From a virus, in UHGV virus genome UHGV-1970909: a DNA stretch of 31,791 nt. One strand, given 5' to 3'. Each line of letters starts with the position of its first letter. The stretch's first letter is position 1. Shown here piece after piece: positions 2 through 31,750 of this stretch. Made by a program: the position numbers and the translations under genes. The notes below the pieces were generated by a model. The model was not told the origin of the DNA. It made no database searches and saw nothing but the letters and a program-made list of their open reading frames with translations.

Positions 2-55
2 TACCTGCGTGAGCGTACTGGTAAGGCTGCTCGTATCAAAGAGCGTCTTAACTAA
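2..55 (+). CDS. 3' end of a host protein-coding gene (partial; C-terminus ...YLRERTGKAARIKERLN, stop TAA 53-55); identity not recognised
   Basis: Frame-2 open reading frame enters from the window start and ends at TAA 53-55; its last 14 nt are the att core duplicated at the other prophage end; a hairpin terminator follows. Confidence 0.4.
   Translation, partial: YLRERTGKAARIKERLN
42..55. repeat. Left att core copy (AGCGTCTTAACTAA), identical to 31737-31750
   Basis: Exact 14-bp direct repeat (17 bp with one mismatch) at both prophage ends; the left copy forms the last codons and stop of the host ORF. Confidence 0.55.
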
Positions 56-7057: not shown

Positions 7058-7642
7058 ATGTTTAAGTACGTTTTAGCACTAAATTTTATTTTTTTTGGCA
7101 ATACACACAACCTGATGAATTACTGGAAAGCGGAGGTTATCAGAAGAGAGAAATTTTCACTGCACCGTCTTTTAAGAGAGAAAAAACACCGGGGCAGAAA
7201 TTTTATTTTTTGGTGGCGCCTGGCAAATGAAATGTATTTGAATGGTGGGAAAATACACAAAAAAGCAGCAAAGCAAATCAATGCTCACCTGATGGAAAAA
7301 TTTGGCTGCGAAATATCACTTGGTGCAAATATTGGCAAAGGAATAAAAATTCCACATCATCATGGAATTGTCATTCATCATTTGGTAGACATAGGTGAAA
7401 ACTTAGTCATACGCCAAAACACAACAATCGGTCAAAAAGACAGCGATGGTAAATCCTTCAAATTGCACATTGGGGATAATGTTGATATTGGTGCAAACAC
7501 ATGTATTGTTGGCCTGAATCATACAATTGGAAATAATGTGAAAATTGGAGCGATGTCATTCGTTAACTGTGACATCCCGGATGATTGTACGCTTGTTACG
7601 ACTAAAACGACCCGATTCATTAGCCATAACAACATATCATAA
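7058..7642 (+). CDS. Cargo gene: left-handed beta-helix (hexapeptide-repeat) acetyl/acyltransferase, CysE/WcaB-like, 194 aa
   Basis: Translation contains tandem hexapeptide repeats (IGANIGKGIKIP..., IGENLVIRQNTTIGQKD, IGDNVDIGANTCIVGLNHTIGNNVKIGAMSFV); AT-rich; opposite strand to flanking tail genes; sits at the P2 Z/fun position between G and FI. Exact start uncertain. Confidence 0.7.
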   Translation: MFKYVLALNFIFFGNTHNLMNYWKAEVIRREKFSLHRLLREKKHRGRNFIFWWRLANEMYLNGGKIHKKAAKQINAHLMEKFGCEISLGANIGKGIKIPHHHGIVIHHLVDIGENLVIRQNTTIGQKDSDGKSFKLHIGDNVDIGANTCIVGLNHTIGNNVKIGAMSFVNCDIPDDCTLVTTKTTRFISHNNIS

Positions 7643-11413: not shown

Positions 11414-11764
11414 TTAACTCAGTGGAAGGGTGATAGAAAAAGGCTGGCCTGATGCCGAACGCGTGCCGGTCATATCGACGTACATCGCGCCGTCATCCTC
11501 TCCGCGTTCAAAGGTGATGGTCGACAAACTGACGCGCGGTTCCCACTTCTGGATCGCGGAGTAGCACGCGGCCATAATCTGCAGACGCAGCGCCGGGGTC
11601 TGCGGCTGGTCAATCAGTGCAGACAACAGCGAGCCATATTCGCGGCGCATGACCCGCGATCCCACCGGCGTGACCAGAATGTCGCGCACGCTTTGCCTGA
11701 TGTGCTCAACCTCAGAAATACTGAGGCCGGTCTGGCTGTTCATTCCCAGATAACGCACCGTCAT
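11414..11764 (-). CDS. W: Baseplate protein gpW, 116 aa
   Basis: Synteny V-W-J and size as P2 gpW. Confidence 0.9.
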   Translation of the reverse strand: MTVRYLGMNSQTGLSISEVEHIRQSVRDILVTPVGSRVMRREYGSLLSALIDQPQTPALRLQIMAACYSAIQKWEPRVSLSTITFERGEDDGAMYVDMTGTRSASGQPFSITLPLS

Positions 11765-12402
11765 TTGACCCCCTTCGTCCAGTTTCCGCCTGGCTCCACG
11801 CCACCATGATCGTGGTCATCGACCTGCACGCCATTTGAGGTAAATTTCCCGCCGGTGTGCTCGATGTTCCCCGACATCGTCCCGCCTTTTTTCACTTCGA
11901 GCGTGCCGGTTGTCAGCTTGTTGGTACACACCACCTCGGGTGTATCGAGGGTGATGCGGGTGGATGCCTTAACCAGTACCAGCGGCACGGTGGCAGTAAT
12001 GGACTCTGATGCAATGACGTCGGCAGTTTTAATACCGGACACGGTGAGCGCCCCGTTTTCGGGTTCGTACTCAATAACCGCCCCGTCAGGAAACGAGACA
12101 TGCAGGGCATCGGGTGAGGCAGACGGCGCGGGATGGTCATCAGAGAAAATACCAGGCAGCACAAAGGCAGTGTCGAGTTCGCCCCCAATGGCAAGAATGA
12201 GCACCTGCTCGCCAACGGAAGGAGCCCACCACACCCGTGAGCGACCGGCGCGACAGGTCAGCCAGTTAAGCCACGTGGTTTGCATCCCTCCGGTCTGCAC
12301 ACGACAAAGCCCCTCAACGGGTTCAACGTCTGTCACAACGCCGGTGCGGATAAGGTTGCGGATCGCACGAGCGATTTCCTGCAGAGAAGTTAAATTGTTC
12401 AT
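11761..12402 (-). CDS. V: Baseplate spike/hub protein gpV, 213 aa
   Basis: Start placed at MNNLTSLQEIARAI (residue 35 of the six-frame ORF), giving a P2-V-sized product; ATGA overlap with W. Confidence 0.88.
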   Translation of the reverse strand: MNNLTSLQEIARAIRNLIRTGVVTDVEPVEGLCRVQTGGMQTTWLNWLTCRAGRSRVWWAPSVGEQVLILAIGGELDTAFVLPGIFSDDHPAPSASPDALHVSFPDGAVIEYEPENGALTVSGIKTADVIASESITATVPLVLVKASTRITLDTPEVVCTNKLTTGTLEVKKGGTMSGNIEHTGGKFTSNGVQVDDHDHGGVEPGGNWTKGVK

Positions 12403-12789
12403 GGGGAAAGGATGCCGCCGGGGAGGGGCAGCAGCAATCGAGCGGGGTTTTATGAGGGATGAAACAACAAACGGCAACTCAGACTTGTCATTACAGACCA
12501 ACACCTCCTTTGAGGGGCTGATTGAAACCTAGTCGAACATCCAGCGTTGTTCCTTAGCTGCGTGACAATGTTTTTGAACACAGTATTGGCCAAAGCTGAG
12601 CCGAAATTGGCATCCTACGAAAAATTCGATTTCTCTAGCCAGTAGTTCGATTTTAGATTTTGTATTACCTTACTCAATGAGTTTTTGGTCAGATTTTTAA
12701 CACACTCAACGCCAAAAGCGGGCGCTCACGTAAACATATCCATTTTTGCTTGAGACATATTTACTATTACAGTGAGCAGTTTATCTGTT

Positions 12790-12833: not shown

Positions 12834-13820
12834 TTATGGATTTGACTTACCTGAAGTCTCTTTTTTTATTTCAAATTTCCCACCCTTGAACATGATATTC
12901 GAATCTTTGATTCCATACAAAAGCATTTCATAAGGATGGTTAATTTTTTGTTCTTTTGTAGCGATACTGGAATTCATCAATTGCAACAAAGCCACATGAT
13001 GTTCACTCGCCCCTAACTCTACCATTTTGGTAGCCATGTTGCTTATCTGTTCTCGTTTTAAAAAATCTTCCCGGAGAGAAAGTAACGTTAAACTTCGTGC
13101 GTTACAAAACTTTATCATGTAAACAACAAACGCACCTAACCCAATATAGGAAAACGATAATGCTAAATAAATAGACGGTGTGGTTATTATGTTTTGCCCA
13201 AATATAAGAAAACCCAGCAGGCCAAAAAAATAAAAAACATTCACCAAAATAAACATGTTACTCATCAGAGCCTTTGTACTTCGAGTTGCATCATATTCTT
13301 TCTCCAGATGCTCCAAAAATGATGATATTTTTATTAAATTTAACTTTTCAATTGTTTCCTTCTCTAAAATCTTGAATTGCTCACTCTCTCTAATTAATTT
13401 TTTGGTAGTGTCCTCCACTGTATCATGCAATGATTCAGTGATCGCCTCTTCAATTTTATTTTCAGAAAACACGCTTGTTAAAGCGTAATTGGCTAATTCC
13501 TTTTGTCTTTTCTCGATTAAACTTTCGACATTTTCTCTGTACGCATCAAAATATTTTTGACCACTCTCGTTTAGCAATATTTTACGAATATGAAATTTTA
13601 TTTTCTCATCTGCCATTGGTTGGCTTTCAGTGTTACCATTCTTCTTTGTGTTATTATCTTTAGTTTCCGCATTATACCTGTCCTTGCCTGAATCAAGTAA
13701 GTTCCGTGAAATGAATTTCACCACAGGACCACGCAGAATAGCTATAGCTATTGCCATTGCAAGAATGAATGGTGAAGCATCAATAAATGATCGCGCAAAT
13801 ACGAAAGAGATTTCACTCAT
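12834..13820 (-). CDS. Cargo gene: predicted integral membrane protein with coiled-coil region (about 329 aa), function unknown
   Basis: AT-rich ORF in the gap between V and S (P2 orf30 position). Hydrophobic helices at FILAMAIAIAIL and FILVNVFYFFGLLGFLIFG...IYLALSFSYIGLGAFVVYMI, with a long charged K/E-rich middle. Start chosen at MSEISF (ATG with GGGAA 6 nt upstream); the six-frame ORF begins at an upstream TTG. Confidence 0.7.
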   Translation of the reverse strand: MSEISFVFARSFIDASPFILAMAIAIAILRGPVVKFISRNLLDSGKDRYNAETKDNNTKKNGNTESQPMADEKIKFHIRKILLNESGQKYFDAYRENVESLIEKRQKELANYALTSVFSENKIEEAITESLHDTVEDTTKKLIRESEQFKILEKETIEKLNLIKISSFLEHLEKEYDATRSTKALMSNMFILVNVFYFFGLLGFLIFGQNIITTPSIYLALSFSYIGLGAFVVYMIKFCNARSLTLLSLREDFLKREQISNMATKMVELGASEHHVALLQLMNSSIATKEQKINHPYEMLLYGIKDSNIMFKGGKFEIKKETSGKSNP

Positions 13821-14133
13821 AAACATTTCCCTATCTAAAATCAAAGAGTTTACTTTTACCCATATTTTCTACTGACTGAACCAGTTTGACAAGAGAGATA
13901 AGCATCTTTAATATCGATTTTGCCCATTAGGCATGAAAATAAAAAATACCACATGAAATCAATATCATACAATGACCACGCGTTGACCTCATCCATAACC
14001 AATAAATTATCTGATCATGAAATTCTTGATATGCATTGCAGAATTCGATTTCCACCATTTCGCTTTTAGATGTTCATCAAATATCAACACCCCACTATCA
14101 GTAGTTGACAGATCAACTCGTAGCTAATTCAAA

Positions 14134-14574
14134 TCAGATGAGTAAAAAAAGATCCTCAATTAATTGTATATCGTTCCTGCTAAATCCGAGTAACTGGCGT
14201 TCTGGATATTGCACGTCCTGAGCATGAGGGTTTGGCCGGTCTTTGAGTCCGAACTGATGAATCTGCGCGATGCGTTGCACCTTGCCAGTGAATTCCACCA
14301 CGGCAGTATCATTGCGGCCACTGGCTTTCATGTAGCGACTGGTTCGCAACTTCTGAAACATCGCCCGTTTAATGCGTCCTTTTTTTGCCCTCAGCGGCTG
14401 GCGTTTTCGTGCCTGATACGGCGTGCCATCAGGTGCTTTTTGCTGTTTGATTCGTTGCTGTTGCGATCTGCGCAGTTCCTTCGCAATCTCAGCGGCCAGC
14501 TTGCGCCGACCCACCGGTGATATTGCCGCAATCAGTCCCGCAAGTTTGTCATCAAAAGGTTTAAATTCATTCAT
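14134..14574 (-). CDS. S: Tail completion / virion morphogenesis protein gpS, 146 aa
   Basis: Synteny R-S-(cargo)-V and size as P2 gpS; overlaps R by 8 nt. Confidence 0.82.
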   Translation of the reverse strand: MNEFKPFDDKLAGLIAAISPVGRRKLAAEIAKELRRSQQQRIKQQKAPDGTPYQARKRQPLRAKKGRIKRAMFQKLRTSRYMKASGRNDTAVVEFTGKVQRIAQIHQFGLKDRPNPHAQDVQYPERQLLGFSRNDIQLIEDLFLLI

Positions 14575-21744: not shown

Positions 21745-22761
21745 ATGAAAAAACACCAAAAGAAAACCGCCAACATGACCGCCAGCGCACCGCAAAAAAT
21801 GGAGGCGTTCACCTTTGGTGAGCCTTCCCCCGTTCTGGATCGCCGCGACATCCTCGACTATGTCGAGTGCATCAATAACGGGAAATGGTACGAGCCGCCG
21901 GTCAACTTCTCGGGGCTGGCAAAAAGCCTGCGCGCCGCCGTCCATCACAGTTCCCCGATTTACGTGAAACGTAACATTCTGGCGAGCACCTACATTCCGC
22001 ACCCGTTGCTGTCACGTCAGGATTTCAGCCGCCTTGTGCTTGATTATCTGGTGTTTGCCAACGGCTATCTTGAAAAGCGCATGAGCGTCACCGGCCAGCT
22101 ATTAAAACTGGAAACCTCCCCGGCCAAATACACGCGGCGCGGTGTCGAGGATGGTGTTTACTGGTATGTATCGAGCTACACCCACCCGCACCCGTTCGCC
22201 CCCGGTTCGGTGTGTCATCTGCTTGAGCCCGATATCAATCAGGAGCTATACGGAATGCCGGAATACCTGAGCGCACTCAATTCAGCCTGGCTGAATGAAT
22301 CCGCCACCCTGTTTCGTCGCAAGTATTACCAGAACGGAGCACACGCGGGGTACATCATGTACGTCACCGACGCTGCGCAAAGCAGCACCGACGTTGAATC
22401 GCTCCGCAACGCGATGCGTGACTCGAAAGGGCTGGGGAATTTTAAGAACCTGTTTTTCTATGCGCCCAACGGGAAACCGGACGGGATCAAGATTGTGCCG
22501 TTGAGTGAAGTCGCCACGAAAGATGATTTTTTCAATATCAAAAAGGTGAGCGCCGCCGACCTGCTCGATGCGCACCGCGTGCCATTTCAGCTGATGGGCG
22601 GCAAGCCTGAAAACATCGGCTCAATGGGGGATGTCGAGAAGGTGGCGCGGGTGTTTGTGCGTAACGAACTGACACCGCTGCAAGAGCGTTTCAAAGAGAT
22701 TAACGACTGGCTGGGAATGGAGGTGATCCGCTTTAAAGATTACAGCCTCGAATCAGAATAA
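21745..22761 (+). CDS. Q: Portal (capsid vertex) protein gpQ, 338 aa
   Basis: Directly follows P and ends about 170 bp before cos, as in P2. Confidence 0.93.
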   Translation: MKKHQKKTANMTASAPQKMEAFTFGEPSPVLDRRDILDYVECINNGKWYEPPVNFSGLAKSLRAAVHHSSPIYVKRNILASTYIPHPLLSRQDFSRLVLDYLVFANGYLEKRMSVTGQLLKLETSPAKYTRRGVEDGVYWYVSSYTHPHPFAPGSVCHLLEPDINQELYGMPEYLSALNSAWLNESATLFRRKYYQNGAHAGYIMYVTDAAQSSTDVESLRNAMRDSKGLGNFKNLFFYAPNGKPDGIKIVPLSEVATKDDFFNIKKVSAADLLDAHRVPFQLMGGKPENIGSMGDVEKVARVFVRNELTPLQERFKEINDWLGMEVIRFKDYSLESE

Positions 22762-23194: not shown

Positions 23195-24460
23195 ATGAAT
23201 ATAATGAAATGTTTTGAATGCGAAACCTGTGGTACACACATTGATTGTAGAATAGGACTTTCAAATCGAGATGTGCAGCCTTTTCAGTTTGCTTGTCCTG
23301 AATGTGAAGAAAAAATTACTTTTAATATTTTGGGTGAAGACTTCAACCTAGAAGGGGCCATTGATCTTGTTGATTTTGAGGCACCATTTACGGGGGGTAA
23401 TCATTTCATAGATTTACACTTGGATTTTCCCGCCTCATTTGAAAAATATGAAATGGGATTTACTCCATTCATGCGAGCTGCTCAGGAAATCGGTCATGAG
23501 AACTATCAGCATCTTAATGAGAGACTGAATGCTCTTAACTACTTATACCCTAAAAAGAGAGAGTTAAGACGCTTAATAACTCAGTATAAACGAGGCGAAG
23601 TAAATACATTTCGAAAAACCTGCAATAAGCTTCTTGGTATACAATTAAAATCTAATAAGAAACAAGATATATTAGCCGCTTTGTATACAGCAACATCCAT
23701 AATGTCTTCACCTTTTACCATACATCAACATAATGAAGAAATAAGCACTAAAATGCCTGATTTATTACGTTCGCTTGATTACACTCACAAAATAAAAACA
23801 AGGGCGTTTTTTGAACAGTTAATTAAAACTGGTTTCTTACGAAATGTACACCATGAATGCCTATCCTTGTACCCAAAAATCGTAGAATTAGACCTACCAT
23901 TAAGGCCAGCCCTTTATTTTGACTACAAGCAATTAAATGAAGGGGATAAAATTTCAGGGCGGGTTTCAACTGCTGACTTTGATAGTTGCAGTAATTTATA
24001 TAAGGATCTATCTGAAGTCTTTTCGCGATTATTAACATTAGTTGCGGGGCTTAATAATCTGCTAAAACGTGGAGATTATGATCTGTTTGATGATTCAGTT
24101 CGTTTAAATAAAAAACAAGAATTAATTAAAGAACTTGCATCTTTAAATAATTTTACCAATATGGATTTAGGTAAAAAAATAGAGTGTATTGATGATTCAT
24201 TTTATTACATCGACAAGAGTGCAATTAATCACAAGTTACGAAATGCAATTGCCCATTATAAATATGAGTACGAAGAATCTACACAAATGATTTTCTATTA
24301 CCCAAATAGAGAAGGAATGAGCAGAGAGAACATGTATGAAATTTCATTTCTTGAATTTCTTAGATATTCTTTGATGCTTTTTCGTGAGGTTCATTCATTG
24401 AATCACATTGTTAAATCATTGTTTTTTTACACTGTGCTTGTTTTAAAGAAGGACATTTAA
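23195..24460 (+). CDS. Cargo gene: N-terminal zinc-ribbon + C-terminal HEPN-like (R-x4-H) domain protein, 421 aa; candidate abortive-infection RNase
   Basis: AT-rich ORF with a strong AAGGAG Shine-Dalgarno; N-terminus CFECETCGTH...ACPECEEK (C-x2-C...C-x2-C); C-terminal motif HKLRNAIAHYKYEY (R349-N-x3-H354, nt 24239-24256); sits between cos and A, where P2 carries tin/old. Confidence 0.75.
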   Translation: MNIMKCFECETCGTHIDCRIGLSNRDVQPFQFACPECEEKITFNILGEDFNLEGAIDLVDFEAPFTGGNHFIDLHLDFPASFEKYEMGFTPFMRAAQEIGHENYQHLNERLNALNYLYPKKRELRRLITQYKRGEVNTFRKTCNKLLGIQLKSNKKQDILAALYTATSIMSSPFTIHQHNEEISTKMPDLLRSLDYTHKIKTRAFFEQLIKTGFLRNVHHECLSLYPKIVELDLPLRPALYFDYKQLNEGDKISGRVSTADFDSCSNLYKDLSEVFSRLLTLVAGLNNLLKRGDYDLFDDSVRLNKKQELIKELASLNNFTNMDLGKKIECIDDSFYYIDKSAINHKLRNAIAHYKYEYEESTQMIFYYPNREGMSRENMYEISFLEFLRYSLMLFREVHSLNHIVKSLFFYTVLVLKKDI

Positions 24461-24865: not shown

Positions 24866-27088
24866 TTAGTCACCTATTAGCTTTGATGTTTCTGCCAATG
24901 CTGCAACACGATTGAGGATTTCCCTGGCCTTAGCCTGGCGTGATGGTGAGGTGGAAAATATCTCCCCTTTAGATGTTCCCTTGAGCCATTTTCCATCGAA
25001 ACAGCTTTTACCACCGGCCATAAGATGCAGGGCTTCACCCCGGCTGATGTTGATGCCGGTTGTCAGATGGATCTCGTCGATAGTCTTCTCTATCGCGGCG
25101 TTTTGCTCATCCGTGCCGTGGATAAATTTCTCCCTTTTTGGTGGCTTTGGCTTCTTGAGTCGGTTCGTCAGCTCTCGCCTTTCACGTCTACTCAGAGGTT
25201 TTGATAAATCGAGTTCCGGCGGATCACTTTCGCTTCCCGTACAGTTATTGACAGAACTCCAAGGGACGGCGAAGCCGTCCTTAACGTCAACGGCCAAATC
25301 AACGGCACGCTTCGGTACAATTTTCCATTGCGTGAGCCGGGTTAAAATCGGGGTGCCAGCTCCGACAGCAGAATCGTATACACCACGAATGCAGACAGTT
25401 TCCTCACCATACTGGTTAATTTCGGTACGCGGTTCATAAAGCGTGCGCACCTGCAAATCATCGCGACGGACAAACGGACCGCCCTGCGCATTAACATAGC
25501 CAGCCCAATCACCGGCGTCGGCGGCATCATGGACAGCCGCAAACTCAACACTCAGACCGTGTGCGGTCTCGGTATCTGCAAGGCGACGCAATTCACGATA
25601 GACAGTAACCGGCGCACCGCCAATAAACTGAAACTGGCGTATATGCCAGCGAGCAGCCCATGCTGAAACAGCGGGAGCTGACTCTTTTAGCAGTTCGCCG
25701 CTTTCATCATCGGTTTCACCATCAAGAGCATAACCATCGATATTTTTCGAGATGTATTTCGCGACGTAGCCGGTTGCGCTGCCTTTCTCCGGATCAATGG
25801 CTTCTGCGTGGAAACGTGCTTTTTTGGCTTTATCGCTTTTGAGTTCGTGAAAATCTTCCTGCCATGCGTAGTCCCGAATAATGCCACGAACGGTATCGAC
25901 GTCCTCCGGGAGCATAAACATCAGCATATGCCAGTGAGGGCAACCGTCATGGTGAGGCTCTGCAACGCGGATCCCGAAAATACGAATGTCTTCACGGTGG
26001 AGTTTTGCGCGAATGCGTGCCCACAGGCCAGTGAGATAACATTGCGTATCGGATGGATTGGATCCACTCCATTTGGTGTTACGGTAGCCTGCCTTTGTCG
26101 TGGCGTGATATTTAGACGGTGCGGTCAGGGTGTAAAACTCACCAACATAACCGAGCTCATTGCAGATATTTTCAAACCCACGAATGCGGGTCATAAGCTC
26201 ACAGCGTCGAATCGCAGGGTTAGCGACTGAGCCATCGTATTTTTCAATCAGGCTGATACGGTTGCCGTCTTCGTCTTCAAGCTCCAGACCTTTGAGAAAT
26301 TCGCGCGTCCGGCGCTTCTGTTCACGCCAGTCTGTCACGCAGTGTTTACTCGCGTAGACATGTTTTTTCTTACTGACATTTCCGATTGCGATTTGCAGGT
26401 GTTCGCGCCACGCAGCCGCAACGCGACGCAGACGTCCACGCCACCATTTTTCCGAAAACATACGGGCAATTGCTGGAGCGACTTTATCCTGATCCCAATA
26501 TTTATCCCGCGACCGTTCCCACTCTGGTGGCATTATCCTGAATTGCTGAGTGATGAAACCAGCATGCATATACCAGGCATTTAATGTCTCCAGTTCACAC
26601 ATGTCAGAATCGTCAATGTTGACTAACTCTGCACGGATAAAATCGGCGATATCAGCAGCCAGCAGGTCGATGTCGGCGCGTGCCATATCCGGGAGTCGGT
26701 TGTATCTGGCGACTATGTTGACCATGCGAGACGCCAGATATTGCATAAGCTGGGTATCGAAATGACAACCGAAAACAGCGGCTGATACGTTGCTGTTAAT
26801 ACCGGTGCACTCGTATTTTTTTGCGACCAGTTCAAGACGCGGCAATGCCTTTTTGCAAAAGCTGATTAAAAAGGCATTGGCTCGTTGACTGCCCTGATTT
26901 TGCTCCAGCACAGCAGCGGTGCGATAAACATCAAAACGCACACATTCAGGCTGGAGAGAAAGCACCTTTCTCGCATGCAGCAAAGCCGCGAACATACGGT
27001 CACGGCGATACTGTTGGTCGTAGGTAAGATATGGACTGGTTATTGCCGACCGTGGAGCATTCCACGGAAAAGCGAATTGAACAGCCAA
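24866..27088 (-). CDS. A: Rolling-circle replication initiation protein gpA (HUH endonuclease), 740 aa
   Basis: Contains EPHHDGCPHWHMLMF (HUH-type motif) and GYVAKYISKNIDGYALDG (active-site tyrosine region) as in P2 A; six-frame start is TTG overlapping the upstream stop, so the true start is uncertain (first in-frame ATG is at residue 32). Confidence 0.9.
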   Translation of the reverse strand: MAVQFAFPWNAPRSAITSPYLTYDQQYRRDRMFAALLHARKVLSLQPECVRFDVYRTAAVLEQNQGSQRANAFLISFCKKALPRLELVAKKYECTGINSNVSAAVFGCHFDTQLMQYLASRMVNIVARYNRLPDMARADIDLLAADIADFIRAELVNIDDSDMCELETLNAWYMHAGFITQQFRIMPPEWERSRDKYWDQDKVAPAIARMFSEKWWRGRLRRVAAAWREHLQIAIGNVSKKKHVYASKHCVTDWREQKRRTREFLKGLELEDEDGNRISLIEKYDGSVANPAIRRCELMTRIRGFENICNELGYVGEFYTLTAPSKYHATTKAGYRNTKWSGSNPSDTQCYLTGLWARIRAKLHREDIRIFGIRVAEPHHDGCPHWHMLMFMLPEDVDTVRGIIRDYAWQEDFHELKSDKAKKARFHAEAIDPEKGSATGYVAKYISKNIDGYALDGETDDESGELLKESAPAVSAWAARWHIRQFQFIGGAPVTVYRELRRLADTETAHGLSVEFAAVHDAADAGDWAGYVNAQGGPFVRRDDLQVRTLYEPRTEINQYGEETVCIRGVYDSAVGAGTPILTRLTQWKIVPKRAVDLAVDVKDGFAVPWSSVNNCTGSESDPPELDLSKPLSRRERRELTNRLKKPKPPKREKFIHGTDEQNAAIEKTIDEIHLTTGINISRGEALHLMAGGKSCFDGKWLKGTSKGEIFSTSPSRQAKAREILNRVAALAETSKLIGD

Positions 27089-28924: not shown

Positions 28925-29503
28925 ATGAAATTGGATGAGTTAGAGGGTGGAAAAGCAGTGCTGCAGCGCATCCTTGATGCGTATGGCTTCACCATGCAAA
29001 AACAACTCGGTGACCTGCATGAGCTGTCATCGGGAACAATTAGCACGTGGGTTAGGCGTAATTTTTTCCCCGGGGATGTTGTTGTTGCATGCGCTTTGGA
29101 TACTGGGGTGTCTTTACGTTGGTTGGCAACAGGGAAGGGGAACAAGTTTGATGCTGACCATACTAATGGCGAAATGAAAACATTAGACCGATTGGATATT
29201 GTTGCAGGTAAGCTGCAGGAAAACGGTCATTGGATTGTTGATGCTAATCTTTTTTCTACTGACGCGACGCACCCTAATTACATAGTAAAAGGCCAGCAGT
29301 CCTGGATAGTTGACTTCGATATGACTGATATAGCAAATGGCCGATGGATGCTCAGTATCGACGGGGATCATGATGTCTATGACGTTGCAAGGATCCCGGG
29401 GAACAGAATAAAAGTCAGCAACGCTGATGCCGATTTTCAATGCTCAGTTTCTGAGGTTAAGTGTATTGGCATGGTGCTGGTAAGCCTGACGAAATCTAGC
29501 TAA
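28925..29503 (+). CDS. cI: CI immunity repressor (186-CI-like), 192 aa
   Basis: Start at MKLDELEGGKAVLQRILDAYGF gives 192 aa, the 186 CI length as I recall it; N-terminal HTH; immediately upstream of int on the same strand. Confidence 0.85.
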   Translation: MKLDELEGGKAVLQRILDAYGFTMQKQLGDLHELSSGTISTWVRRNFFPGDVVVACALDTGVSLRWLATGKGNKFDADHTNGEMKTLDRLDIVAGKLQENGHWIVDANLFSTDATHPNYIVKGQQSWIVDFDMTDIANGRWMLSIDGDHDVYDVARIPGNRIKVSNADADFQCSVSEVKCIGMVLVSLTKSS

Positions 29504-29507
29504 TGAT

Positions 29508-30536
29508 ATGAGTGTTAAAAAACTGACATCGGGTGAATGGCTTTGTGATTTCCGCGTCGACGGGGCTGAAAGTCGCCGCGTGCGTAAGAAGTTTTCAACC
29601 AAAGGTGAAGCCCTTGCCTTCGAGCAGTATTACCGAGAAGAGGCACAAAATAAGCCGTGGATGGGTGAGAAGGAAGACCGTCGACGTTTGAGTGAACTGA
29701 TTGAGCTTTGGCATAACCTCCATGGTCAGTCGCTCGCTGCCAGCAAATCACGATTGGCCAAACTGCACATTGTTTGCCGAGGTCTTGGTGATCCGATAGC
29801 AACCCAGCTTACCGCTAAAGATTTTGCCCATTATCGTGATAAGCGCCTCAAGGGTGAAATCGACAATGGCTATCACGCGAATCCTGAAAAGTGGATTGCG
29901 AAACCCGTCACTGTGAACCGGGAGCAGCAGTACCTTGAGGCCGTTTTCAATGAGCTGAAACGCTTGGGGGAGTGGAGTTTGCCAAATCCTCTCGAAGGTG
30001 TGCGAGTTTTCAAAGAAGCCGAAAAAGAAATGTCCTGGCTTACCCAGCCTCAAATTCGCGAAGTGCTCAACGCGTGTGAATGCTACGGAAAAATTTACTT
30101 AACTCGCATCGTCAAAGTATGCCTTGCGACCGGTGCTCGATGGAGCGAGGCCGAACGCCTTACTCGTTCACAGCTTTCGCCCCATAAGTTGACTTTCACG
30201 AAAACGAAGGGAAAGAAGAATCGTACAGTACCGATCCCTCGCTGGCTGTATGACGAGTTGGCTCCTTTGCAGGGAAAAATGTTCCACCCCTGTTATCAGG
30301 AGTTCAAGAAAATGCTCGCACTGACCGATATTGTGTTGGCTGAAGGGCAGAAGACCCACGTGTTACGCCATACGTTTGCAAGCCATTTTATGATGAATGG
30401 GGGTAACATCTTGGTACTCCAACGGATTCTTGGTCACGCGAACATACGGGAGACGATGCGTTATGCTCACTTTGCACCGGATCATTTAGAGGAAGCTGCT
30501 CAATTGAATCCAATTGCAAAACTTATTACTCATTGA
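29508..30536 (+). CDS. int: Tyrosine integrase, 342 aa
   Basis: C-terminal catalytic signature ...THVLRHTFASHFMMNGGNILVLQRILGHANIRETMRYAHF (H-x-x-R ... Y); downstream of cI. Confidence 0.93.
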   Translation: MSVKKLTSGEWLCDFRVDGAESRRVRKKFSTKGEALAFEQYYREEAQNKPWMGEKEDRRRLSELIELWHNLHGQSLAASKSRLAKLHIVCRGLGDPIATQLTAKDFAHYRDKRLKGEIDNGYHANPEKWIAKPVTVNREQQYLEAVFNELKRLGEWSLPNPLEGVRVFKEAEKEMSWLTQPQIREVLNACECYGKIYLTRIVKVCLATGARWSEAERLTRSQLSPHKLTFTKTKGKKNRTVPIPRWLYDELAPLQGKMFHPCYQEFKKMLALTDIVLAEGQKTHVLRHTFASHFMMNGGNILVLQRILGHANIRETMRYAHFAPDHLEEAAQLNPIAKLITH

Positions 30537-30595
30537 TTTTTTTTCTATGAATGTTTTGCGTGAAGATTCTTGTCCATTATTATTAAGGAGTTTGA

Positions 30596-31600
30596 ATGCC
30601 TACCAATCGTACTAGATACTCATTTTTAAGCCCAATGAGTATCAGTGATAGCGTCAGTGTTTTTTTTGCAGCCCTTGATTTTTTTTCAATCCCTGGACAG
30701 GACAAGGTTAGGAAAACTATAGCTATACCTCAAACCAATAATGGTATTCATCCTCTTCCTGCTGGTTCTTTCATGGATTATATTAAGGCGTTAAATATTT
30801 TGGCTGAGCCTGATCGCCACATGCAAAATATACGAAAGCTACTTAACAAAATGGAAGGTGTAGGTTTGTTAGTACCTATGGGGAACTCTGGGAGTGTATT
30901 TTTCCCAACCAATTATTACTTCTTGAAAGAATTAACTGAGAGAGAAAAGAAAGGTCGATTCTGGTTGTCTGAATGCTTGGGGCCTGAGTATGTGTACAAG
31001 TTTTTTGGTAATTTAATCATACATATCGTAGGCATGACATCAGATGGAGATGAACATGGAGGCACTGGAGTTATTATTAATGATAAACTGGTTTTGACAT
31101 GCAAGCATGTAATCGATGAAATGGTTATCAATGATACTCAATTTATTAATGGTAGTCAGATCAAAGTAGTCAACACGCATACACATAATGAAATTGATGT
31201 TGGAATTATTGAGTTCGAACCAAATAGCTTTATTGTAAATGGGAATGTGTGTTTTGATTCTCCGCACTTAAATGATGATATATATGTTTTAGGCTATCCA
31301 CCAATTCCATATTCAAAAGAAGTTGCGCCAATAATGCAGAAAGGTGAGATTACTAACCCTGAAATTACTACATTGGATAATCATACGGTTTTTCTTTTCT
31401 CTGCTATAGCTAGACCTGGTAATAGTGGAGGTCCAATTATTGCTAGGAATGGCAGGATCCTTGGGATAGTCACGAAAGAGCTATCACTTCAAGAAAGCAA
31501 TAACTTCCCGTTCTTTGCGGGGATTCCAACAAATGAAATAGTAACAGCCCTCTCTGATATGGGGTTTGGAGGGATACTTCCTGTCGAAAATTATCAGTAG
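30596..31600 (+). CDS. Cargo gene: two-domain protein with C-terminal trypsin/chymotrypsin-like serine protease (H171, D201, S277 in GNSGGP) and an unrecognised N-terminal domain, 334 aa
   Basis: AT-rich ORF with a perfect AAGGAG Shine-Dalgarno; motifs TCKHVI, EIDVGIIEF and ARPGNSGGPII in H-D-S order; no signal peptide evident; sits between int and the right integrase arm repeats. Confidence 0.75.
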   Translation: MPTNRTRYSFLSPMSISDSVSVFFAALDFFSIPGQDKVRKTIAIPQTNNGIHPLPAGSFMDYIKALNILAEPDRHMQNIRKLLNKMEGVGLLVPMGNSGSVFFPTNYYFLKELTEREKKGRFWLSECLGPEYVYKFFGNLIIHIVGMTSDGDEHGGTGVIINDKLVLTCKHVIDEMVINDTQFINGSQIKVVNTHTHNEIDVGIIEFEPNSFIVNGNVCFDSPHLNDDIYVLGYPPIPYSKEVAPIMQKGEITNPEITTLDNHTVFLFSAIARPGNSGGPIIARNGRILGIVTKELSLQESNNFPFFAGIPTNEIVTALSDMGFGGILPVENYQ

Positions 31601-31622
31601 TGCTGGAAAACTGTACCATTCG

Positions 31623-31645
31623 ATGTCCACATTATGTCCACGCAG
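31623..31645. promoter_or_regulatory. Integrase arm-type binding sites (two direct copies of ATGTCCAC) at the right end
   Basis: ATGTCCAC at 31623-31630 and 31634-31641, same 8-mer and orientation as at 132-170; about 95 bp from the right att core. Confidence 0.5.
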
Positions 31646-31736: not shown

Positions 31737-31750
31737 AGCGTCTTAACTAA
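31737..31750. repeat. Right att core copy (AGCGTCTTAACTAA)
   Basis: Identical to 42-55; an in-frame TAA immediately upstream shows this copy is not preceded by the host ORF, consistent with phage-derived DNA to its left and host DNA to its right. Confidence 0.55.

Follow-up and report, generated by a model that had tools for sequence, protein, structure and literature searches.

The window analysed here, 31,791 nucleotides from UHGV virus genome UHGV-1970909 (one strand, 5' to 3'), contains one whole prophage of the P2/186 type, inserted at the 3' end of the host gene rplS. Between the integrase gene, int, and the adjoining attachment (att) site it carries a gene for a 334-amino-acid (aa) protein in which a winged-helix domain is joined to a chymotrypsin-fold serine protease. 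With moderate confidence, we take this protein to be a self-contained cytoplasmic sensor-protease that shields the lysogen from other phages or from mobile elements. A first-pass annotation of the same DNA had already suggested a sensor-effector protein for defence or exclusion. That suggestion is strengthened by the slot the gene occupies, by the defence genes and mobile elements that neighbor its relatives, by its retention in decayed prophages and by the purifying selection that acts on it, although the defensive role itself is still something we infer.

The protease gene and its product

The gene and the parts of its product are as follows; the gene is taken from the list of open reading frames (ORFs), and the ribosome-binding site was read from the sequence.

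30585..30590, + strand: Shine-Dalgarno sequence AAGGAG, 5 nucleotides before the ATG
30596..31600, + strand: the whole gene, with its stop codon, for the 334-aa protein of winged helix and S1 serine protease
30596..30931, + strand: N-terminal, family-specific domain (residues 1–112), with a winged-helix core of helices 56–66 and 72–88 and strands 92–97 and 105–109
30932..31015, + strand: linker (residues 113–140), with three short helices (115–119, 122–128 and 130–138) in the AlphaFold2 model and invariant L128 and G129
31016..31597, + strand: chymotrypsin-fold (S1, HtrA/MarP-like) protease domain (residues 141–334)
31106–31108, 31196–31198 and 31424–31426, + strand: catalytic residues H171, D201 and S277, the last within ARPGNSGGP
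31577–31597, + strand: C-terminal tail LPVENYQ (residues 328–334), conserved family-wide

The first-pass annotation placed an AT-rich ORF of 334 codons at exactly 30596..31600, inserted between int and the att site, and both coordinates and composition bear this out: the guanine-plus-cytosine (GC) content of the gene is 37.3%, that of int 48.9% and that of the window as a whole 51.4%. When positions 30540–31620 were shuffled 2000 times, the longest ORF was 76 aa on average and in no shuffle longer than 178 aa; an ORF as long as the one observed is thus not due to chance. On the + strand between int and the protease gene we found no consensus promoter or terminator-like site, in a scan whose counts equal the shuffle expectation and which is thus uninformative. 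In one related element (contig L017, allele P0006) the start of the protease gene overlaps the stop of int as ATGA. This overlap, and the lack of a terminator-like site in the window, make it likely that the protease is co-transcribed with cI and int in lysogens of the intact prophage; the link from cI–int transcription to a lysogenic promoter is drawn, by inference, from what is generally known of P2 and 186.

The C-terminal half was proposed from the outset to be a trypsin-like protease with an H171–D201–S277 (GNSGGP) triad, and both the two-domain build and the triad hold. Pfam Trypsin_2 (PF13365) matches residues 156–291 over the whole of its model (1–144), scoring 60.2 bits where the cut-off is 27.6 (E=5e-16). 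This score, the order His-Asp-Ser together with the G-x-S-G-G motif, and a double beta-barrel fold place the domain among the S1 proteases. H171, D201 and S277 are invariant in an alignment of 60 homologues that are 29–50% identical to the window protein, and therefore the triad is correctly assigned and under selection. The AlphaFold2 model, computed from the family alignment, is compact and of high confidence (predicted local distance difference test 92.7; predicted template-modelling score 0.90). The protein is predicted to be an intact, cytoplasmic serine protease. Nearly every member of the family ends in a strictly conserved tail, LP[VI]E-x-[YWF]-[QE]-COOH, and this may be an autoinhibitory or docking element; the alphavirus capsid protease is a case in which an enzyme's own C-terminal tail occupies its active site.

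In sequence and fold the catalytic domain resembles HtrA, Deg and Spl proteases, its closest counterparts in fold being the HtrA/MarP quality-control proteases (HtrA, DegP, DegS and MarP; S1C and related), and some database names for its relatives are 'S1-C subfamily serine protease' and 'V8-like Glu-specific endopeptidase'. Could it then be a periplasmic or secreted housekeeping or virulence protease of the HtrA/DegP type? We consider this very improbable, and at the level of sequence it is refuted. Neither a signal peptide nor a transmembrane segment is apparent from a hydropathy scan (no dedicated predictor was used): the maximum 19-residue Kyte-Doolittle value is 1.42, at residues 14–32, a segment that contains D18 and D28 and folds in the model as helix 16–30 of the N-terminal domain. 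Pfam finds no PDZ domain, and the protein ends 14 residues past its last helix (312–321), which follows the protease barrels. The NCBIfam Deg/HtrA models score 9–30 bits against cut-offs of 408–800 (degP_htrA_DO 30.1 against 416.2, DegS 17.1 against 423, DegQ 15.9 against 756 and DegP 8.8 against 720). The N-terminal winged helix, finally, has no counterpart in HtrA. A secretion signal with homology to an HtrA/DegP housekeeping enzyme, which the first-pass annotation named as a finding that would refute its reading, was thus looked for by hydropathy, PDZ and NCBIfam searches without being found.

The N-terminal region, some 150 residues that the first-pass annotation could not recognize, is indeed without a family in sequence searches of Pfam, NCBIfam, PADLOC and the PDB, which return only insignificant, single-member matches to the winged-helix families DEP, H1, PadR and MarR. 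Structure prediction refines that verdict: when the model is compared with known structures, a bundle of three helices with a beta-hairpin wing after it identifies a winged-helix fold. A profile of this domain, searched against 1.84 billion representative proteins, matched just 304, and nearly all of the 150 that were listed are 330–385 aa long or shorter (truncation of the shorter ones being unchecked). Five longer or extended proteins with the domain were scanned, and all five retain Trypsin_2. As far as these matches go, the N-terminal domain is private to this protease and no swappable module. One of the extended relatives, P0054 (444 aa; L019/L020 6001–7335), carries an extra N-terminal HTH_3 (XRE-type) domain before the winged helix and protease, in a region with several transposases.

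A cargo gene in the int–att slot

The features that define the prophage ends and the slot are these:

42..55, + strand: left copy of the att core, formed by the last 14 bases of host rplS; the other prophage boundary
29508..30536, + strand: tyrosine integrase gene, int, directly upstream of the protease gene and on the same strand; Pfam Int_N and Phage_integrase match the identical gene on contig L002
31601..31736, + strand: phage att arm, from the protease stop to the att core, with two copies of ATGTCCAC (31623–31630 and 31634–31641)
31737..31750, + strand: att core AGCGTCTTAACTAA, a second copy of the rplS 3' end (42–55); the longest direct repeat between the two ends of the window, with host DNA beyond it

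The gene order is cI (about 28925–29503), int (29508–30536), protease (30596–31600), att arm, core and host DNA. All five copies of ATGTCCAC in the window, where 0.82 would be expected by chance, lie at the two prophage ends and in the same orientation, three of them at 132–170, just inside the left boundary, and two at 31623–31641. Their placement makes them probable arm-type binding sites for Int, which would define the P and P' arms. The host DNA that flanks the prophage, yfiB included, is 95–99% identical to E. coli in most genomes and matches the yfiB–rplS intergenic region; because of this identity, the host of the prophage is an Escherichia. The immunity region is of the 186 type, with CI repressor, CII/CP76, Fil and Dhr, as annotated on the 99% identical contig L002. 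The element is a 186-like (Eganvirus-type) prophage, and the protease is accessory cargo in its int–att slot.

In the closest sequenced phages, PSP3, Midge and RCIP0057, about 240 bp separate int from ogr and D, and no gene lies there; the protease gene is therefore an insertion of about 1 kb in a slot that is normally empty. The first-pass annotation had described just such an empty gap in P2 and proposed that int–att junctions of related prophages be compared. The comparison, now made, shows the slot to be empty, or filled by another gene, or filled by diverged alleles of the protease. The other gene is that of E. coli E2348/69 (L001 2074–3000), in which a decayed P2-like prophage at the same rplS–yfiB site has a different, 308-aa hypothetical protein (WP_001294850.1) in its int–att slot. 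This protein belongs to no Pfam or PADLOC family, and as a member of the protease family it was rejected (BLASTP E=6); it is different cargo.

The same slot is a minor defence hotspot of P2-like prophages, accounting for 3% of systems (PMC13586616), and in that work six of eight randomly chosen genes of unknown function from the P4 hotspot protected against phages. The window gene lies just where such cargo lies: int ends at 30536, the gene occupies 30596–31600, the arm repeats follow at 31623–31641 and the core at 31737–31750. Like the int–att cargo of that survey, and like the classic P2 hotspots (PMC9122126), it stands at a position that is variable, AT-rich and differently filled or empty. 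It differs in that the survey counts known systems, its text mentioning neither proteases nor trypsin, whereas the window family escapes detection by PADLOC.

Alleles, remnants and selection

Three diverged alleles of the protease occupy the same slot: that of the window, also present on contigs L002 and L003; P0006 (43% identical; L017); and P0005 (50% identical; L004–L007). All have a GC content of about 37%, and the att arm is kept downstream of each. Between the three elements int is 78–85% identical, and the protease 43–50%. The divergence is uneven within the protein, too: the N-terminal domain, at 31–38% identity between alleles, has diverged faster than the protease domain, at 52–59%.

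P0005, which was read on 22 contigs, and P0004, an allele 90% identical to that of the window, sit in decayed prophages. Some 29 kb of phage DNA has been lost from these remnants, and what they retain is only a 3' fragment of int (72–74 aa), an intact protease gene and the att arm. The breakpoints within int differ (30114 and 30210 in window-equivalent positions), and the two decay events were therefore independent. The ratio of non-synonymous to synonymous substitutions (dN/dS) between the window and P0004 alleles is 0.12 overall, 0.16 for the N-terminal domain and 0.10 for the protease; it was taken from this 90% pair only, synonymous sites being saturated among the 43–50% alleles. Because the gene is retained intact in the remnants, and because dN/dS is 0.12, we conclude that the protease works without the phage and is kept by selection on the host.

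Two of these loci have features of their own. In L005 (1–9300) an intact, second 186-like prophage lies in tandem with an older remnant, consisting of int fragment and protease; the rplS site has thus been reused while the remnant protease was kept. In L004 the remnant holds a complete attB-like copy, comprising the core and the rplS terminator, at about 7440–7620. After it, and upstream of the int fragment, come some 600 bp of AT-rich DNA that encode a small peptide, rich in Cys, whose N-terminus is signal-like (MKVCFSFLIIVLLSISSSTVSAKNYPCSK...).

A widespread, stand-alone family

A word-indexed search found 242 relatives that align over their full length, with full-length homologues down to E=1e-45, and a scan of genomes that represent species of many phyla gave 241 loci, none of them more than 42% identical to the window protein. 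The family occurs in Gamma-, Beta- and Alphaproteobacteria, Cyanobacteria, Acidobacteriota, Chloroflexi, Verrucomicrobiota, Spirochaetia and Patescibacteria, and in Actinomycetota, including Mycobacterium, Nocardia and Rhodococcus; full-length members are also found on Rhodococcus plasmids. The window allele is in none of 5426 complete E. coli genomes, and no close relative is in any of 50,697 phage genome records. In Pseudomonas one member is carried by an integrative element, close to the integrase of that element, and a member in P. chlororaphis occupies a stable chromosomal locus that is common to several strains, beside non-defence genes.

No partner gene is conserved: when the ORFs within 3 kb were clustered in 80 loci, no neighbor family recurred in more than four. 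As judged from these neighborhoods, the protease is a stand-alone protein family. Its 140 immediate neighbors in 80 genomes include integrases and transposases; Type I, II and IIG restriction-modification enzymes; GajB, LmuB, dGTPase, DRT, AbiEi, PD-Lambda-5_B, PDC-S21, PDC-S46, ThsB-TIR, SIR2 and Schlafen; and DUF4238 and DUF3800. By a rough count among the families listed, which is no formal statistic, about 15–20 of the 140 are of defence type. The background given in one review is some 1.5% of bacterial genes (PMC13434031), and the comparison of the two figures is likewise rough and carries no formal test. One locus (L008/L021 3997–9005) has the appearance of a defence island: immediately upstream of a homologue of 42% identity are a gene for an RVT_1 reverse transcriptase and one for a 727-aa SMC-like protein that matches the PADLOC candidate PDC-S46 (E=7e-259).

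What the protease might do

If the protein does guard the lysogen, we imagine that it acts in the following way. It would be made in the lysogen, co-transcribed with cI and int where the prophage is intact, and at rest it would form a compact, inactive unit of two domains. The fast-evolving winged-helix domain would bind a trigger that derives from the infection, either a phage protein or a nucleic acid, and binding would free the HtrA/MarP-like catalytic domain with its H171–D201–S277 triad. The freed protease would then cleave essential proteins of the host or the phage, and so stop the infection. A bolder proposition, which we put forward only tentatively and with more doubt than belief, is that the window protein is the founding member of a widespread family of single-polypeptide immune proteases, in which the winged helix senses a phage ligand and releases an HtrA-like protease, possibly one inhibited by its own tail.

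Several observations weigh against a defensive role. No PADLOC defence model matches the protein over its full length. Beside some family members lie ordinary housekeeping genes, and the enrichment of defence genes beside others rests on the rough count given above. Many immune sensors are modular, but this N-terminal domain, among the matches listed, has never been swapped onto other effectors. The winged-helix core is about neutral in charge (family mean 0.0), and because of this the sensing of nucleic acid is not indicated. And for the remnant copies, which have lost the cI–int promoter, no promoter was identified in the scan described above, whose counts equal the shuffle expectation.

The retention and purifying selection of the gene in decayed prophages show that the host benefits, not what kind the benefit is, and they would also suit a lysogenic-conversion gene that is directed at the host and has nothing to do with immunity: for example, a protease for regulation or quality control that changes the physiology, stress tolerance or virulence of the host by cleaving one of its proteins, possibly a DNA-associated one that it reaches through the winged helix. 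The stable P. chlororaphis locus beside non-defence genes, the several housekeeping neighbors elsewhere and the closeness in fold to HtrA/MarP quality-control proteases point the same way. We nevertheless judge such a role unlikely. The spread of the family is patchy, crossing phyla on prophages, integrative elements and plasmids; it diverges fast relative to int; its neighbors are frequently of defence type; and the slot is a defence hotspot. A general physiological role, moreover, sits poorly with the absence of the window allele from all 5426 complete E. coli genomes when the host is itself an Escherichia. The first-pass annotation had held a virulence role to be as possible as defence; slot, neighbors, remnant retention and purifying selection now make defence the likelier of the two.

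Two further explanations tie the protease to the phage itself. P2/186-type phages are parasitized by P4-like satellites, and their hotspots carry weapons for such conflicts (PMC9122126, PMC13586616); a protease that degrades the proteins of P4-type satellites, of competing prophages or of host defences would fit the location and the fast evolution of the gene just as well as defence does. But the gene is intact in two independent remnants that have no functional phage left to benefit, and most family members lie outside recognizable phages, so we regard this as distinctly unlikely; action against satellites would still defend the lysogen, besides, and to that extent the two accounts overlap. 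Less probable again, to the point that we would be surprised by it, is a regulator of the phage life cycle, a DNA-bound protease that cleaves CI, Int or an antirepressor and so tunes induction or excision, by a logic analogous to that of ImmA/ImmR or to LexA-type self-cleavage. The gene does lie directly downstream of cI–int, on the same strand and with no terminator-like site between, and in L017 it overlaps the int stop; winged helices are common in transcription factors, and one relative has the extra HTH_3 domain. Yet the closest phages so far sequenced get through their life cycle with no such gene, purifying selection persists in remnants that have lost cI and a working int, neither a repressor nor an integrase is kept as a partner across the 80 loci, and the winged-helix core is not basic.

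Should the sensor-protease that guards the lysogen prove to be the right reading, the gene would be a compact immune module, 1 kb in size, that occurs across many phyla, a handle on the cargo of the little-studied int–att hotspot of P2/186 prophages, and a simple system in which to learn how a cytoplasmic, trypsin-like protease stays silent and is then triggered. Should the role not be defensive, retention in the remnants under purifying selection still marks a prophage gene that is beneficial to the host.

Other cargo in the prophage

Three further islands in the window carry genes that appear to be cargo:

7058–7642, + strand: 194-aa ORF in an AT-rich island at the position of P2 Z/fun, between tail sheath and tail-fibre assembly genes
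12834–13844, - strand: 336-aa ORF in an island of about 35% GC, between the genes at 11761–12504 and 14134–14574
23195–24460, + strand: 421-aa ORF in an island of about 30% GC, between the portal gene Q (21745–22761) and the replication gene A (24866–27088)

The 421-aa ORF has no Pfam or PADLOC match; it stands at the classic P2 old/tin defence hotspot, and is a candidate for a further defence gene. The 336-aa ORF has only a sub-threshold match to DUF2852, and none in PADLOC. Its flanking genes are presumably, from the gene order of P2, baseplate V-like (11761–12504) and tail-completion S-like (14134–14574), and this position within the tail and lysis region is an unusual one for cargo. The 194-aa ORF has weak, sub-threshold matches to hexapeptide-repeat/LbH families; it could be a conversion gene of the acetyltransferase type.

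Comparison with known systems

The best PADLOC matches of the window protein are all to its Trypsin_2 domain (residues ~145–302), at E-values from 8e-16 to 5e-3: the reverse transcriptase-protease of retron type XI (8e-16), then LmuA (3e-12), HamA1 and Avs1b. In retron type XI, LmuA, the HamA1 variants and Avs1b, cytoplasmic S1 proteases are immune effectors, and the window protease domain is like theirs. It is by this domain alone that the window protein aligns with them, for it has no reverse transcriptase, no STAND NTPase, no TPR and no LmuA C-terminal region. The matches support a resemblance to immune protease effectors, as far as alignment can, and not membership of any of these systems.

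Each was considered in turn. Retron type XI, a reverse transcriptase fused to a trypsin-like protease (PMC7736814), was rejected: the match covers positions 344–493 of 510 only, and the window N-terminus is a winged helix, not a reverse transcriptase. Lamassu was rejected as well, only positions 16–177 of the 425 of LmuA being matched. The protease is N-terminal in LmuA but C-terminal in the window protein, and the window has no LmuB/SMC partner, int lying upstream and att downstream; an LmuB-like neighbor occurs in just one of the 140 sampled. In Avs1 (AVAST type 1) the match extends over positions 15–107 of 1924 (E=0.005), and the window protein, at only 334 aa and without the STAND NTPase and sensor repeat domain that follow the protease in Avs1, was rejected as a member. 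A different kind of relative is phrog_18002 (PHROGs v4; profile length 330), a profile with no annotated function that is similar in length to the window family; its positions 55–278 match residues 83–294 weakly (E=1e-9), from the wing through the linker into most of the protease. Perhaps it represents a remote branch, carried by phages, of the same architecture.

Single-gene phage defence by proteases is known from very few cases. The protease-related systems in one review are only Lit, Borvo (CHAT), Gao_Iet and PD-Lambda-2 (bioRxiv 10.1101/2024.10.26.620412), none of which uses a stand-alone, chymotrypsin-fold sensor-effector; Uzume, which we considered as another, is described there as a GIY-YIG protein and was rejected. 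Among the papers that could be searched, none describes a characterized single-gene defence that combines a winged helix with a trypsin-like protease.

In its proposed logic the window protein is like Lit or CapRel, the one a prophage protease triggered by a phage protein and the other a fused sensor-toxin. PADLOC includes a model for Lit (peptidase U49), but this is not among the matches at E≤1, and the catalytic type of the window protein is serine; membership was accordingly rejected. Lit, from the e14 prophage of E. coli, is an abortive-infection protease that cleaves EF-Tu when the capsid protein gp23 of phage T4 appears (bioRxiv 10.1101/2024.10.26.620412). It is a zinc metalloprotease (HExxH), whereas the window protein has a Ser-His-Asp triad in a chymotrypsin fold and a winged helix, and the two have no similarity in sequence. 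The analogy is one of function only: each is the product of a single prophage gene, a cytoplasmic protease without a partner, and the window protein, if we read it correctly, would likewise lie dormant until a phage supplies the trigger.

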